A DNA stretch of 64,000 nucleotides from an uncultured Gammaproteobacteria bacterium (GTDB lineage Bacteria; Patescibacteriota; Microgenomatia; PFEM01; DATLAM01). A model generated the notes under the pieces. It saw only the letters and a list, made by a program, of their open reading frames with translations, did not search any database and was not told the DNA's origin. The stretch is taken from contig CAZMIZ010000004.1 in assembly GCA_964566925.1 (NCBI GenBank), positions 35,951-99,950 on the forward strand. The letters are read 5' to 3'. How positions within the stretch are numbered: the stretch's first letter is position 1; each line of letters begins with the position of its first letter. Of the stretch, positions 51,441 to 58,846 are shown piece after piece. The position numbers and the translations under genes were made by a program.

Positions 51441-51938
51441 TTAGGTATGCTTATCAGCCACGACAAAAGCGCCATAAGATTCCGGTTTAGTTTTAGCAGT
51501 AAAACCATTGCCGTTAACCATCCCGACCACTTCTTTAATCATCTCTCTGGTAGAACCATTCTGGCCGACATCAATGTGGATTTCAAGTTCATAGGGTTCA
51601 CCGTTAAGGCGCTTCTGTAACTGAGGCAATAAAATCTCCGCTAAATCAAGTGAATATAGGGTTTCGGTATAAATTTTATCCCGGAGGGAGTTAACTTTAT
51701 TCTTTTTATTGCGTTGCCAGAAATAGCGACCACCTTTGCCCTTACGATGAATAACCACCGCGGTAATAATGTCCAACCTCTTTCCTTTTTTGTCCCGGTG
51801 GGATTTAGAATCAGTGCCAATGACGAGACGATAGAAATTGCCTGGCTCTTCATCAATAAAACCAGCCAATTCACTCACCATTCTTTTAATGGTCAACTTC
51901 CCGGCACTAGGGCTAATAAAAAAACCATTCTTTTTCAT
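51441..51938 (-). CDS. DUF458/YkuK-like RNase H-fold protein
   Basis: FFISPSAG...YRLVIGTDSK...IITAVVIHRKGKGGRYFW...LEIHIDVGQNGSTREMI. Confidence 0.5.
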   Translation of the reverse strand: MKKNGFFISPSAGKLTIKRMVSELAGFIDEEPGNFYRLVIGTDSKSHRDKKGKRLDIITAVVIHRKGKGGRYFWQRNKKNKVNSLRDKIYTETLYSLDLAEILLPQLQKRLNGEPYELEIHIDVGQNGSTREMIKEVVGMVNGNGFTAKTKPESYGAFVVADKHT

Positions 51939-52026
51939 AGGTTTGAGCTTAGTATATCACAAATTCTGACCTTTTTAAATATCCCTACCAGGCCGTTTTG
52001 GCAGGCCATCCTGTATAATAATAGCT

Positions 52027-53445
52027 ATGGCCGTTAAGCTCAAAAAAGTCGGTCTTAACAAGTGGCAAATCGAGCGGTTGCCGCAGATGAAAGCCGAGGC
52101 AATCATCTTTGCCAAAGAAGAAATGCTTCCTCAAATCCAGGGCGATCTCTCTTTAACTCAGCTTCAAGAAGCAGCCATGCTCCCTCAAGTCGTTTCCCCG
52201 GTAGTGGGGATGCCGGATATCCACGAAGGTTTTGGTTTGCCAATTGGCGGAGTGATGGCCACCGAAGGTCTCATTTCTGTTGGGGCAGTCGGGATGGATA
52301 TTAATTGCGGCGTCAGGCTTTTGGCAAGCAATCTTAGCTATGATTCTAAGCTTTTTAATCGGGTAGCCCTCCAGACTATCATCCGGAAAATCGAGCAAGA
52401 AATTCCGGTTGGCTTAGGTGGTAGACGTAAAGGAAAAATTCCCGGATTAACCTTATCCGAGATTGTTACTCGCGGAGCCGAAGTTTTGGTGAAAAAAGGC
52501 TTTGGAACTAAAGAAGATCTTGAAGGTACCGAAGAAGGAGGCAAATTAGAAGGCGCCTCTTTAGAAGCCCTCACTGACCGTGCTCAGAAAAGAGGTAAAA
52601 AACAACTAGGGACCTTAGGTTCAGGCAATCATTTCATTGAAATTCAAAAAGTGGCAGGAATTTTTGATAAAACTTTAGCTAAAACCTGGGGGCTTTCTCT
52701 AAATCAAATCTGTATCATGGTCCACTGCGGTTCCCGGGGCTTAGGCCATCAAACTTGTCTTGACTACACCAATCGATTCTGGGGCTTAAAAGATAAATAT
52801 CAGATTGATGTGCCCAGAAAAGGTTTGGCAGCTCTTCCGCTTGACACTCCTGAGGGCACTGCCTATTTCGGGGCCATGGCGGCGGCCGTTAATTTTGCTT
52901 TTGCCAACCGCCAATATATCGAATACCAATTGCAAAGTGTTTTCCATCGCTTTTTCAAAGGCAAAGCTAAGCTCAAAATTATTTATGATGTCGCCCATAA
53001 CATTGCCAAATGGGAACCCTTCGACTCCACTCAGGGTAAACAGCTTTTAGTTCATCGGAAGGGCGCCACCAGAGCTTTGCCTGCCGATCATCCCAAAAAT
53101 CCCCAGCGATATAAAAAAACCGGCCATCCGGCCATTATTCCTGGCACAATGGGAACCCCTTCCTTTATTCTCGTTGGTCTGCCTGGCGCCCAGGAGACCT
53201 ATTTTTCGGTTAATCATGGCGCTGGTCGGGCGATGAGCCGGAAAGAAGCCAAAAGAAAAATCAGCCAAGAGGAATTTGAAAAGCAAATGGGGGAAATTGT
53301 CTATAACAAACCCTTCTGGGTAATCGCTGATGAAGCCCCAGGTGCTTATAAAGATATTAATCAGGTAATTGAAACGCTTGAAGAGGCGGGCATTGCTAAA
53401 AAAGTGGTCCAAATGATTCCTTTGGCGGTAATTAAAGGAGATTGA
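52027..53445 (+). CDS. rtcB: RNA-splicing ligase RtcB (3'-phosphate/5'-OH RNA ligase)
   Basis: VVGMPDIHEGFGLPIGGVMAT...GMDINCGVRLL...GTLGSGNHFIEIQ...NHGAGR. Confidence 0.95.
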   Translation: MAVKLKKVGLNKWQIERLPQMKAEAIIFAKEEMLPQIQGDLSLTQLQEAAMLPQVVSPVVGMPDIHEGFGLPIGGVMATEGLISVGAVGMDINCGVRLLASNLSYDSKLFNRVALQTIIRKIEQEIPVGLGGRRKGKIPGLTLSEIVTRGAEVLVKKGFGTKEDLEGTEEGGKLEGASLEALTDRAQKRGKKQLGTLGSGNHFIEIQKVAGIFDKTLAKTWGLSLNQICIMVHCGSRGLGHQTCLDYTNRFWGLKDKYQIDVPRKGLAALPLDTPEGTAYFGAMAAAVNFAFANRQYIEYQLQSVFHRFFKGKAKLKIIYDVAHNIAKWEPFDSTQGKQLLVHRKGATRALPADHPKNPQRYKKTGHPAIIPGTMGTPSFILVGLPGAQETYFSVNHGAGRAMSRKEAKRKISQEEFEKQMGEIVYNKPFWVIADEAPGAYKDINQVIETLEEAGIAKKVVQMIPLAVIKGD

Positions 53446-53477
53446 GTTTGCCTTTTTTCTTTTCTGCCTTACCTCGC

Positions 53478-53505
53478 TATAATAAACTCCACTATTATAC
53501 TAAGT
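53478..53505. repeat. Copy 1 of a ~28-bp element TATAATAAACTCCACTATTATACTAAGT (internal 7-8-7 inverted repeat plus a TATACTAAG box)
   Basis: Near-identical copy at 53974-53999 on the other side of the TrpR-like gene. The TATACTAAG box also occurs at 51946-51954. Confidence 0.7.
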
Positions 53506-53970
53506 GCGAACTCTTACTGATCGGCGCTTTTTGACTCTTTTAATTTTTTTAAGGGCAGCGTCGGTGCCAAGCTTTACTGCCGCTTCAACAAGAGTTGAAC
53601 CAGCTGTCTTGGGAGCGCGGATTATTGTCCTTGGTTTGGGCCTTTTTTGCTCCTCCAGCTTAATAATCCGACCAATGGTTTTCTTTAAACCGAAACCATT
53701 GGTGTTTAGTTGATTATTAATCTTGGCAATAGTATTGCTAGTCACCCTGACCTTGCTTTTGATTGTCTGATAGTCAGCCCTATTTATAAGCATTTTGGCA
53801 ATCTGAATCCGCTTAGCCAACATTTTCACTTCTGTATGGCTTAAGAGATCTTTTAAGAATTCTCTCGTTTCTGCCTTTGACTCAAGCAAAGTAATGGCAT
53901 TCCAGAAGTTATCAATATAAACGCCCATCAATTCCGGAGGCTCAACTGGGATTCGGGAAACTTTGGTCAT
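53500..53970 (-). CDS. TrpR/YerC-YecD-like small DNA-binding protein with basic C-terminal extension
   Basis: TREFLKDLLSHTEVKMLAKRIQIAKMLINRADYQTIKSKVRVTSNTIAKINNQL, then a Lys/Arg-rich tail. Confidence 0.5.
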   Translation of the reverse strand: MTKVSRIPVEPPELMGVYIDNFWNAITLLESKAETREFLKDLLSHTEVKMLAKRIQIAKMLINRADYQTIKSKVRVTSNTIAKINNQLNTNGFGLKKTIGRIIKLEEQKRPKPRTIIRAPKTAGSTLVEAAVKLGTDAALKKIKRVKKRRSVRVRT

Positions 53971-53973
53971 GGG

Positions 53974-53999
53974 CTTAGTATAATAAACTCCATTATTAG
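53974..53999. promoter_or_regulatory. Copy 2 of the element; the TATACTAAGC box lies 2-11 nt upstream of the minus-strand ATG of the TrpR-like gene (-10-like TATACT)
   Basis: cttagtataataaactccattattag. The same box sits 8-17 nt upstream of the DUF458 ATG. Confidence 0.5.
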
Positions 54000-54006
54000 A
54001 GTAAAG

Positions 54007-54276
54007 TTAGGTTCGAGAAAGCAAAAAGAGGGTCGTCATGCTGGCTAAAAGAGCGACCAGACAATATTCGAGAACCACCCTAAAGTGTAGATCTCGATGA
54101 AGGGCATGATGAATCATCCCCCAAATAACATAAGCGACCGCTGTACCGACAACCACCAGCTGCTGAGCAGCCCGGTAATAATCAAAGAGCAAAAATAGAC
54201 TGAACCCCACCGCCAAAATGGAAAAAAGGGCCAGATAGTCTTTTACTTTATATTCTTTAACTAGTTCTTCAAACAT
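54007..54276 (-). CDS. Small 2-TM membrane protein, hypothetical
   Basis: 89 aa, hydrophobic. Confidence 0.35.
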   Translation of the reverse strand: MFEELVKEYKVKDYLALFSILAVGFSLFLLFDYYRAAQQLVVVGTAVAYVIWGMIHHALHRDLHFRVVLEYCLVALLASMTTLFLLSRT

Positions 54277-56731: not shown

Positions 56732-58846
56732 CTAACTAAAGAAAGAAGCCAAACTCATTAAGAAGGAGCGAAAAGCCGCTGATCTGGCGCTAAGAAAGCC
56801 TCGGCTGGTTGCTAAAGCCCCTATTAGTTCTCTTCTTCTTCGGTATCCCTTAGTTGATAGGTAGGTGGCCAAGGAACCGAAAAGAATCACCCATAGTTTT
56901 TGTTCTTGGGTCATTCCCGCCGGGGCCGTTGTCACTCCTAAAGTACCGCCACCCCCAGCCGCTTCCACCTCTTGACTGGCTCCAGGAATCAAAGGTAAAG
57001 AACCACCGATCAGAAAAGGACTCTCTGATGAAGCCGAAATCAACTGATCATCTGGGCCAACGTAACCTGAAGCCACGGCTCGAGCTAGATATTCACCCGG
57101 GGGAGCATCTTGGGAAAGAACCAAGCCGGTAGTCACCTTAACGCCTTTACCGGCATCAAGATCACCTAAATCAAAAATCCCGCCACCCATATCAATTCCG
57201 TCCTTAATCAAATTAATCGCCAGCTTAGTATCATAAACTCGACCGGTTCCCGGATTTTTAACGACAACAAAGAAAGTAACGGTGTCGCCCGGAAGAACAT
57301 GAGTGCCCACATTATGACTCAAATTAACTTCCAGAAGTCCCCCTTCTTGGTGAAGCTCTAAACCTGAATCTTCATGAGCCGAAGTTGTCTCAATTGGGGA
57401 GTCAGGGTTATTTTCCGGATCAGTGGCAAAAAGACTGGCGCCACCAATATCCCCATCAAGAGAACCAAAGATATTAATAAAACCTAAAAAGCCAAACGAA
57501 CGAATAATTGAGGAATTAACAAAATTAATAATCGAAATCGCACTGTAGGCATCCCCAGTTTCAATCTCTGCTTCCCCACCTTCAATTGAATTCCCGCCGG
57601 TATTGGCAGTTGAGGAAACATTGTTGACCACACAGGCTTGATTATCAACCAAAACCACATCGCCACAGGTGGAACAACTACTATCACTATCAGTACTTGA
57701 ACTAGTGGAACTCAATAACAAATTGCCGCCTCCAGCTAAACCTTCCAGCTCATTCCAACCCAAAAAGTCTCCTAGCCATTGGCCAAAAGTATTAACCACC
57801 AAATGATAGAAAGTAACGTCAACCAAACTGGTATTAACTAAATTAACCAAATTAACCACGCTTTGGGCATTACCGGTAGTGATACTGGCGCTCTCGGTGC
57901 TCGTAATTGAGTTCTGGCCACTGATGGCTGAGGAATCAACCTGATTTTCAACCGTCGCCTCGTTTTCTATTTTTACGACCTCACCGCAGCAGTTATCTTC
58001 AGTCGAGAACTCAGGTAAAAGAATGTTTCCTTCAACCCCGCCAAAAATGTTAATCGTCACGATATGAACGGTGGAATCAATAAAGGTCGTATTCACCTTA
58101 TTAAGTAAGGAAACAATTGAAACGGCATCGCCGGTATTGATCACCGCTTCTTCAGCCCCTTCAATTGAGTTATCCCCGGTATTGGCTGAAGAAACAATCT
58201 CGTTAGAGAGATAGGCGAAATTCTGATTATTAATGACGGAAACATTAACCACCGGTTCTTGATTGTCATTTTGAATAAAAACGTTATTGGCAATTGCCAG
58301 GGGTGTCGTGGTTAAATCGATATCCCCACCCTGGGGAACAAAAATATTTAAAGTTTGGTACAAAACCTGGGAATTGACTTCCGTCGAATTGACTTCATTT
58401 TCCACTTCCACCACGGAAACGGCATCACCGGTTTCAATTACCGCCGGTGAAGGCGTGGGCGTCGGCGTCTCTTCAGGAAGGGTTTCGGTTTCTCCCGTCG
58501 TTTCTTCGGTGGCACTGGGAGTGGCTTCTTCAGTGGTTAAGGGATCAATCGTTGGAGTGGGCGTCGGTTCCTCAATTGAATTTTCACCACTGATCGCCGT
58601 TGAGTCAACTTCGTTGGTCACTTCGGCTTCGTTTTCAATTTCGGCGGTCGTCGCCTCTTCTTCAGTTTCCTCAGGTGGGTCGCAAGGCGGCAAAGAATCA
58701 CCAGATTCATCCGTGGTTTCCGTTGTCTGCACCTCTGGATCGTCTCCTGAACCAGCTTCTTCAGCTAAAACGGCTCTAAAGCCCAGCTGACCCACGGCCA
58801 GTAAGAAAATGATCCAGATTGCTAAACCTTTTTTAATTTTTTTCAT
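56732..58846 (-). CDS. Secreted 704-aa acidic repeat protein ('TGDNSI' repeat family), Thr/Pro-rich N-terminal region
   Basis: Signal peptide MKKIKKGLAIWIIFLLAVG. Four ~90-aa repeats with core N.V.S.A.TG.NSI.G....I.TGDA.S...L.N.VN(T/S). Confidence 0.6.
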   Translation of the reverse strand: MKKIKKGLAIWIIFLLAVGQLGFRAVLAEEAGSGDDPEVQTTETTDESGDSLPPCDPPEETEEEATTAEIENEAEVTNEVDSTAISGENSIEEPTPTPTIDPLTTEEATPSATEETTGETETLPEETPTPTPSPAVIETGDAVSVVEVENEVNSTEVNSQVLYQTLNIFVPQGGDIDLTTTPLAIANNVFIQNDNQEPVVNVSVINNQNFAYLSNEIVSSANTGDNSIEGAEEAVINTGDAVSIVSLLNKVNTTFIDSTVHIVTINIFGGVEGNILLPEFSTEDNCCGEVVKIENEATVENQVDSSAISGQNSITSTESASITTGNAQSVVNLVNLVNTSLVDVTFYHLVVNTFGQWLGDFLGWNELEGLAGGGNLLLSSTSSSTDSDSSCSTCGDVVLVDNQACVVNNVSSTANTGGNSIEGGEAEIETGDAYSAISIINFVNSSIIRSFGFLGFINIFGSLDGDIGGASLFATDPENNPDSPIETTSAHEDSGLELHQEGGLLEVNLSHNVGTHVLPGDTVTFFVVVKNPGTGRVYDTKLAINLIKDGIDMGGGIFDLGDLDAGKGVKVTTGLVLSQDAPPGEYLARAVASGYVGPDDQLISASSESPFLIGGSLPLIPGASQEVEAAGGGGTLGVTTAPAGMTQEQKLWVILFGSLATYLSTKGYRRRRELIGALATSRGFLSARSAAFRSFLMSLASFFS

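Follow-up and report, generated by a model that had tools for sequence, protein, structure and literature searches.

Two palindromic elements enclosing a YerC/HisR-like repressor gene in a Microgenomatia genome as probable operators of the encoded protein

A 64,000-nt stretch of contig CAZMIZ010000004.1 from an uncultured member of the Microgenomatia (Patescibacteriota), referred to below as the window, contains a gene for a TrpR-family regulator that is enclosed by two near-identical palindromic sites, one fused to its promoter and the other placed on its stop codon. The explanation favored here, to which we assign an overall probability of about 0.7, is that the YerC/HisR-like repressor encoded between the two elements binds both of them as its operators. 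The case is built from sequence comparisons, among them the recurrence of the bracket in related genomes and the joint variation of the centres of its two sites. An earlier note on this DNA had described two copies of an element on the flanks of a 471-bp TrpR/YerC-like gene, which was confirmed by sequence matches and by Pfam and TIGRFAM profiles. Both copies were present as described, and their positions were corrected to a common register, giving the following features.

53476-53501, minus strand: 3′ site, reading AGTATAATAG-TGGAGT-TTATTATAGC in gene sense; 38.8 bits with the weight matrix
53977-54002, minus strand (53977-54005 with the -35 hexamer): 5′ site fused to the promoter, reading ACTCTAATAA-TGGAGT-TTATTATACT in gene sense; 38.4 bits with the weight matrix
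53500-53970, minus strand: YerC/YecD (HisR-like) TrpR-family helix-turn-helix (HTH) gene, 471 nt, 156 aa; assigned with Pfam/TIGRFAM, PDB and AlphaFold2

The two sites and the gene between them

The element was specific to these two positions. The sequence TATAATAAACTCCA occurred exactly at 53478-53491 and 53979-53992 and nowhere else in the 64 kb, and TATTATACTAAG was found exactly once per strand, at 53493-53504 (plus) and 53974-53985 (minus). When up to two mismatches were allowed, the pattern TATAATA-N8-TATTATA matched twice in the 64 kb, both times at the sites, against 0.23 expected matches, and none of 100 shuffles gave two matches. A weight matrix built from six sites of the window's clade returned 38 bits for the two sites, 8 bits for the next-best match in the window and up to 15 bits for shuffles, and it detected no third site in the window. 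The ubiquitous promoter consensus that the earlier note had named as the finding that would speak against its proposals was thus not seen, the element being limited to two copies in 64 kb.

Each site is palindromic, its 6-nt centre being enclosed by arms of 10-11 nt. The 3′ site has the second base of the TAG stop codon (53500-53502) as its first position, so that the two overlap by 2 nt. In the best alignment of the repeat finder, the two sites formed a direct repeat with 23/26 identical positions, 501 nt apart; in the common register 21/26 positions were identical, whereas the inverted alignment reached only 18/26. A separate inverted match of 12/12 from the repeat finder arose because each site is itself palindromic. 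The asymmetric centre, ACTCCA on the plus strand and TGGAGT in gene sense, is oriented identically in the two sites, so the copies are direct repeats, and the opposite orientation previously attributed to the 3′ copy was not upheld. In the window's clade (the window, L001 and L002), the site reads A[CG]T[CA]TAATA[AG]-TGGAGT-[TG]TAT[TC]ATA[CG][TC]. The window also holds a partial match, CTTAGTATCATAAACTCGA at 57224-57242, within a 704-aa open reading frame (ORF; 56732-58846, minus strand) without a Pfam match; it agrees with the left part of the 5′ site, CTTAGTATAATAAACTCCA, at 17/19 positions, lacks the second arm, and may be a half-site or a chance match.

The 5′ site is interlocked with a predicted promoter. 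The promoter scan returned TTTACT-17-TATACT (9/12) on the minus strand at 54005-53977, with the -35 hexamer (54000-54005) abutting the left arm of the site and the -10 hexamer (53977-53982) forming its right arm. The -35 hexamer begins 1 nt past the stop codon of an upstream 89-aa ORF. Only 6 nt (AAGCCC) lie between the -10 hexamer and the ATG, and they contain no Shine-Dalgarno sequence; transcription starting 7 nt after the -10 hexamer would thus begin on the A of the ATG. These features support a leaderless-type promoter, as had been suggested before, and 6 nt is also the commonest gap in relatives. Similar spacings were observed in front of two neighboring genes: the RNase H-like gene (51441-51938) is preceded by TGATATACTAAGC, 9 nt and then the ATG (region 51939-51962) and shares a TATACTAAGC box (51948-51959) with the regulator promoter, and rtcB is preceded by TGTATAAT, 7 nt and then the ATG (region 52010-52029). 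Judging from these start regions, the organism may commonly produce mRNAs that are leaderless or nearly so.

The encoded protein scored 49.3 bits against PF01371 Trp_repressor (cut-off 27, 5e-13) and 48.2 bits against TIGR02531 yecD_yerC (cut-off 42.2, 1e-12). Against TIGR01321, the equivalog for true TrpR, it reached 23.7 bits, below the cut-off of 67. The closest solved structures in the PDB search were "putative Trp repressors", namely 3KOR (2e-18), 3G1C and 3FRW. The AlphaFold2 model had a mean predicted local distance difference test (pLDDT) value of 79, with an all-helical, TrpR-like core at residues 12-109 (pLDDT >89), and Foldseek gave target-normalized template modeling (TM) scores of 0.81-0.86 to 3FRW/3G1C/3KOR and 0.65-0.73 to E. 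coli TrpR. The core is followed by a linker and a long basic helix (residues 123-153) that was modeled with low confidence (pLDDT 51-60). This C-terminal extension, which ends in K-K-R-x-S-V-K, is kept in the homologues of 145-163 aa, and with 156 aa the regulator exceeds the size of a short single-domain protein (under about 100-110 aa). No paralogue of the regulator was found in the 64-kb window.

Recurrence of the bracket and variation of its centre

Loci were collected by exact-protein look-ups (L001-L007, L140-L143), by a scan of GTDB genomes (L008-L019) and by a scan of metagenomes with the arm pattern (at least 120 matching stretches, those listed being L020-L139), and one locus, a paralogue at L016 8509-8946, was met in passing. 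About 30 distinct homologous loci were obtained, from Gottesman-, Levyi-, Davies-, Chisholm-, Curtiss-, Shapiro- and Roizmanbacteria-type genomes and from metagenomes; these homologues point to a Microgenomates-like bacterium as the source of the window. In all of the loci the regulator gene has a site at its promoter and a second at its stop codon, with a sole exception in placement that is weighed below. The upstream and downstream copies of a locus were identical at 20-26 of 26 positions, while the best matches elsewhere in the same loci reached 16-19, and the consensus of the relatives' sites was ACTCTAATAC-N6-GTATTAGAGT. The upstream site ends -2 to 33 nt before the start codon. A TTG stands directly 5′ of it in 9 of the first 16 loci, completing TTGACT-17-TAGAGT, and no TTG was found 5′ of the 3′ sites or of single sites away from the bracket.

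Measured from the first base of the stop codon, the downstream site begins at -17 to +17 nt across these loci, and this position holds even where the following intergenic region extends over 100-690 nt. Its identity was 23.6/26 with a co-oriented neighbor and 24.0/26 with a convergent one. Site spacing tracks gene length, from 373 nt for a 102-aa homologue to 535 nt for a 163-aa one, with 442-469 nt for a 145-aa paralogue. Helical phasing of the two sites was considered and rejected, since spacings of 483-514 nt share no phase and the wider sample of 373-535 nt follows gene length. The 102-aa homologue (L061 3204-3602) has no C-terminal extension and retains a bracket with 26/26 identical positions.

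A further pattern concerned the 6-nt centre. While the arms agreed at 15.6/20 positions between genomes and 18.1/20 within a genome, the centre agreed at 5.70/6 within a genome versus 2.36/6 between genomes, a value not reached in any of 10000 permutations. Eighteen centre types were counted among the loci compared, about a quarter of the centres being perfect palindromes, and in all 22 loci with asymmetric centres the two copies point in the same direction. Loci with the order LysRS-regulator-Ham1-SerRS carry the centres TATACY, TAGACT or TGCGCY, so the centres change in place. Where a third site lies beside the bracket (L026, L030 and L077), it shares the bracket's centre; in L026 (611/3646/4158) and L077 (108/1740/2338), three same-centre sites punctuate two genes at every boundary, in the order site, PEP-utilizing or 512-aa gene, site, regulator, site. 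In L016, two paralogues in one genome have the centres RCTATC (152-aa copy) and ACTAGA (145-aa copy), the 145-aa paralogue having its own bracket at L016 8476-8970 and likewise at L049 5871-6365 and L030 2444-2911, a difference that suggests a role of the centre in keeping the specificities of the two paralogues apart. Co-variation, third sites and paralogue-specific centres fit a specificity set by a trans-acting protein, and the simplest account would be that the whole 26 bp including the centre is read by such a protein with drifting specificity, which the sites follow. Two sites that were initially identical and track one target would stay co-oriented, so that no mechanism reading their orientation is needed.

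The synteny LysRS (class I)-regulator-Ham1-SerRS is kept across distant lineages. The regulator usually lies 3′ of an aminoacyl-tRNA synthetase gene (L009-L012 and L143, also L008, L013, L015, L017 and L018), of which class I LysRS was confirmed with Pfam in L143, and MetRS, GluRS and TyrRS-like proteins were judged by N-terminal sequences alone. Ham1/RdgB and SerRS often follow on the 3′ side, and the neighbor in the window is instead the RNA ligase RtcB. The aminoacyl-tRNA synthetase and RtcB neighbors may hint at the signal of the regulator. Two genes adjoin the bracket in the window.

52027-53445, plus strand: rtcB (RNA ligase), convergent neighbor of the regulator; Pfam RtcB 3e-145
54007-54276, minus strand: 89-aa hydrophobic ORF, upstream of and co-oriented with the regulator; from the ORF list

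On the same strand 5′ of the regulator, this hydrophobic ORF, a CAP-domain gene and a sortase gene were identified (Pfam for the latter two), and the order CAP-domain gene, small ORF, regulator also occurs in L001 and L002. Read-through from the 89-aa ORF would run into the 5′ site. The regulator and rtcB are separated by 54 nt, which hold the 3′ site, and because rtcB is convergent, no co-oriented gene is available to be driven from the 3′ site in this genome.

Sites were also found away from the bracket, against an estimated 35-50 chance matches of the arm pattern in the whole metagenome collection. Among the matches listed, 86 sites had at least 600 nt on both sides, of which 25 adjoin a YerC-like ORF, 42 stand alone between genes and 19 fall within long ORFs; many of the single sites in this set have lineage-typical centres. 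The genes just 3′ of single sites include those for Ham1, NUDIX, HD-domain 5′-deoxynucleotidase-like, PEP-utilizing and 6-phosphogluconolactonase-like proteins and an ABC ATPase. The intragenic sites have lineage-typical centres, are in frame and are translated as TLI[HL]xSIRV or TLLLRxNRV; the choice of frame is constrained in part, since the remaining two frames contain stop codons. They occur in ThrRS at the same position in three species (L029 3444, L070 2846, L114 1496) and in HisRS in two species (L104 2789, L120 1997), in both cases about 72-76 aa from the C-terminus, and further in Sua5/YrdC (L031/L087/L121), a RecG-like helicase (L040), an RsmI-like methylase (L042), a family-2 glycosyltransferase (L071/L112/L130), Wzy_C-domain proteins and thymidine kinase. 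These intragenic sites are possible operators or roadblock sites.

Some of the single sites listed are probably unrelated, for instance those in a eukaryotic RING-finger ORF, a phage scaffold protein and a MalT-like protein, as well as a TTGATG-centre group before a gene for a MetN-like ABC ATPase. This group comprises seven loci (L027, L039, L060, L084, L099, L119 and L137) with an identical site 32 nt 5′ of the MetN-like gene, on contigs of 115-212 kb and with no YerC-like gene nearby, and it may represent another organism or another regulator using the same arms. One single site with the centre TATATA (L089 1008-1033) lies 12 nt upstream of a tRNA-Thr gene, the only one of 34 loci in which a tRNA gene directly follows a single site.

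Operator function and competing explanations

That the sites are operators of this regulator and serve its autoregulation appears likely from the evidence of sequence and layout. A shared operator for autoregulation had already been among the possibilities raised in the earlier note, and it is now well supported by the bracket in about 30 loci, the co-variation of the centres, the overlap with the promoter and the HisR-like half-site. For the last of these, the arms ACTCTA/ACTTTA...TAAAGT/TAGAGT resemble the published motif of HisR (= B. subtilis YerC), cacTTTAnnnnnnTAAAgtg (PMC9413887). The 5′ operator would cover the core of a sigma-70-type promoter, whose -35 hexamer abuts the left arm and whose -10 hexamer coincides with the right arm, and transcription from this promoter would begin on or beside the ATG and yield a leaderless mRNA. 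A repressor bound there would occlude the promoter, resulting in classical negative autoregulation.

The 3′ operator would then be a second autoregulatory site, at which the bound protein blocks the elongating RNA polymerase. Such a block could stop both read-through out of the gene and convergent transcription entering from rtcB, and a polymerase stalled about 15 nt before the bound protein would leave transcripts without a stop codon, as at lacI-O3. A roadblock or insulator is favored because the 3′ site is fixed to the stop codon whatever the context; as the main role of this site, we nevertheless regard an elongation roadblock as a tentative assignment that falls short of probable. The lack of TTG at single and 3′ sites, unlike the regulator's 5′ site, fits a protein that often acts downstream of promoters. 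An extension of this idea, which is rather doubtful at present, holds that the YerC-like protein is a "punctuation" regulator of Microgenomates that mainly blocks elongation at gene boundaries and at in-frame sites (ThrRS, HisRS, Sua5, RecG). Its own gene would be sealed at both ends, and the stop-less transcripts produced at the stop-codon operator would be removed via transfer-messenger RNA (tmRNA). If true, a mechanism so far known only as an oddity of lacI-O3 would be conserved throughout a lineage.

Several observations weigh against the operator explanation or parts of it. We infer the identity of the binder from proximity and motif similarity, and protein binding to the sites, repression and the roadblock role at the 3′ end are inferred as well. 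The centre of the window's clade has a self-complementarity of 0/6, and many other centres are asymmetric, which is not obviously explained by a symmetric dimer. The operator spans 26 bp with half-sites 14 nt apart, versus 20 bp and a 6-nt gap for HisR. The 3′ copies have no -35 hexamer, and in L088, the exception in placement mentioned above, the sites lie about 45 nt off the start and stop codons. The bracket of the 102-aa homologue in L061, kept without the C-terminal helix, indicates that the helix is not required for the bracket. Furthermore, the tight fit of the sites to the gene ends could alternatively stem from genome compaction or from an ancestry as the promoter of a downstream gene.

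DNA looping between the two sites might be added to the proposed mechanism. As the main role of the 3′ site, with a tetramer bridging both sites in a loop of about 500 bp so that the auxiliary operator sharpens repression, looping is credible but unlikely. Two near-identical operators flank the gene in all loci, LacI O1-O3 and O1-O2 are known looping systems, and the extra long C-terminal helix, absent from HisR/TrpR proteins of about 100 aa, could mediate oligomerization. That helix was modeled with low confidence, however, and L061 keeps the bracket without it. The variable spacing, which tracks gene length without a helical phase, also speaks against a loop, and looping does not need the distal site to be on the stop codon.

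Still less likely is a role of the 3′ copy as a regulated promoter or operator for downstream transcription, which in the window would yield an RNA antisense to the 3′ end of rtcB (minus strand) or directed into the regulator (plus strand). A co-oriented gene (Ham1, TatD and others) follows the 3′ site after 10-85 nt in 10 of the first 16 loci, and the palindrome places a -10-like hexamer on both strands. On the other hand, the next gene is convergent in the window and in about 11 other loci, where the site is equally well kept, and no TTG precedes any 3′ copy. The promoter scan was empty at the window's 3′ site on either strand: its plus strand offers a -10-like hexamer with no -35, and its gene-sense -10 position reads TATAGC, without the final T. 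The antisense promoter proposed in the earlier note thus reduces to the -10-like hexamer that any copy of the palindrome carries.

The palindromes are very unlikely to act as RNA hairpins, that is, as a terminator, 3′ stabilizer or processing signal. The 3′ site would be transcribed and foldable, and in L012 its hairpin reached -12.6 kcal/mol (z = -4.8), but the window's hairpin is weak (-8 kcal/mol, z = -1.4) and A/U-rich, and the 5′ copy lies upstream of the predicted start and hence outside the mRNA. The terminator scan found nothing at the 3′ site, which has neither the GC-rich stem nor the U tract of an intrinsic terminator, and Rfam returned no match at the sites and a single weak one (E = 0.24) elsewhere in the region. 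A structured RNA or terminator was rejected for the window.

Equally remote, or slightly more so, is the idea that the direct repeats are recombination sites of the lox/dif type and that the regulator is an excisable or once-inserted cassette, the mobile footprint considered in the earlier note. The 11-6-11 nt layout, the direct repeats with identical centres, including those 22 co-directional loci, the tight placement against the gene ends, and the three sites punctuating two genes in L026 and L077 all recall such modules. However, the LysRS-yerC-Ham1-SerRS synteny is kept across distant lineages while both centres change together, and the gene was always present between the sites, with no unoccupied bracket among the loci examined. 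The perfectly palindromic centres confer no directionality, the 5′ copy is in exact register with the promoter, single sites are also present in front of other genes and, in frame, within essential ones such as the genes for ThrRS and the HisR-unrelated HisRS, and no recombinase or transposase was found within about 6-10 kb. The footprint idea is not supported. A miniature inverted-repeat transposable element (MITE) or insertion sequence (IS) was also rejected, as there are two copies in 64 kb, the repeats are direct rather than inverted, and no transposase is nearby.

Finally, a chance match or a generic promoter consensus of the organism, suggested by the AT-rich, -10-like hexamers and by the similar TATACTAAGC box before the RNase H-like gene, can be set aside with near certainty, being ruled out by the window counts against the 0.23 expected, by the shuffles, and by a layout and centre co-variation kept in about 30 loci.

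Significance and relation to known systems

Gene regulation in the Candidate Phyla Radiation (CPR)/Patescibacteria is hardly known, and these bacteria cannot be grown alone; a search of the literature on CPR regulators with such motifs found nothing relevant. The system described here provides a concrete, testable regulator-operator pair that is kept across a superphylum-level group, and its 26-bp motif with a lineage-specific centre can be used for regulon prediction straight from metagenomes. The co-varying centres constitute a natural data set for the co-evolution of repressor and operator specificity. Neither the protein family nor autoregulation from a promoter operator is out of the ordinary. 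What is unusual is that a second operator, obligatory here, stands on the stop codon, and we did not find descriptions of a stop-codon second operator across a CPR lineage, of a 26-bp operator with a lineage-specific centre, or of in-frame intragenic copies.

The closest relatives by protein family are HisR and TrpR. HisR, the predicted histidine repressor, is the YerC protein of B. subtilis; it has the 20-bp palindrome cacTTTA-N6-TAAAgtg as its operator, and the HisR study looked for such sites upstream of the hisR repressor genes (PMC9413887). The regulator of the window shares with HisR and E. coli TrpR the Pfam/TIGRFAM family, the fold, and a palindromic operator with ACTTTA/TAAAGT-like half-sites. 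It differs in its 156 aa, about 50 aa more than HisR and not below 100, in its C-terminal basic helix, in the second operator at the stop codon, which is obligatory here, and in the wider operator of 26-28 bp, with its half-sites set 14 nt apart instead of separated by a 6-nt gap within 20 bp. Unlike in the HisR regulon, no his genes adjoin any site.

In phage lambda, the CI repressor gene lies between OR and OL, which are bound by its own product and cooperate via a DNA loop; each comprises three sites, the two are 2.3 kb apart, and both are promoters in a phage context. The position of a repressor gene between two operator regions is common to both systems, whereas here single 26-bp sites stand tight against a 0.47-kb chromosomal gene.

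Modules flanked by Xer/dif or loxP sites are bounded by direct repeats with a 28-bp, 11-6-11 layout. The present sites are similar in their arms of 10-11 nt around 6 nt and in their direct orientation. They differ in having no recombinase in the vicinity and no observed presence/absence polymorphism, in their many palindromic centres, and in the register of the 5′ copy with a promoter.

Control at the level of elongation is known from another small HTH regulator. The controller C.Kpn2I is reported to limit its own expression by blocking elongation rather than initiation (PMC6237814). It belongs to a restriction-modification system and to another protein family, and the position of its site is different.

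The nearest parallel for the 3′ site is the lac system, in which LacI bound at O3 acts as a roadblock to lacI transcription, giving truncated mRNA and SsrA-tagged products (PMC3711431). In both systems an operator is located where the coding region of the regulator ends. Autoregulation of lacI, whose promoter is constitutive, consists of the roadblock alone, with a weak O3 that depends on looping to O1; here, the promoter has an operator too, both sites are strong and near-identical, and the roadblock is a proposed role. If this role is true, the mechanism seen at lacI-O3 would be a general design, and it would suggest how compact genomes with few recognizable terminators insulate their transcription units.

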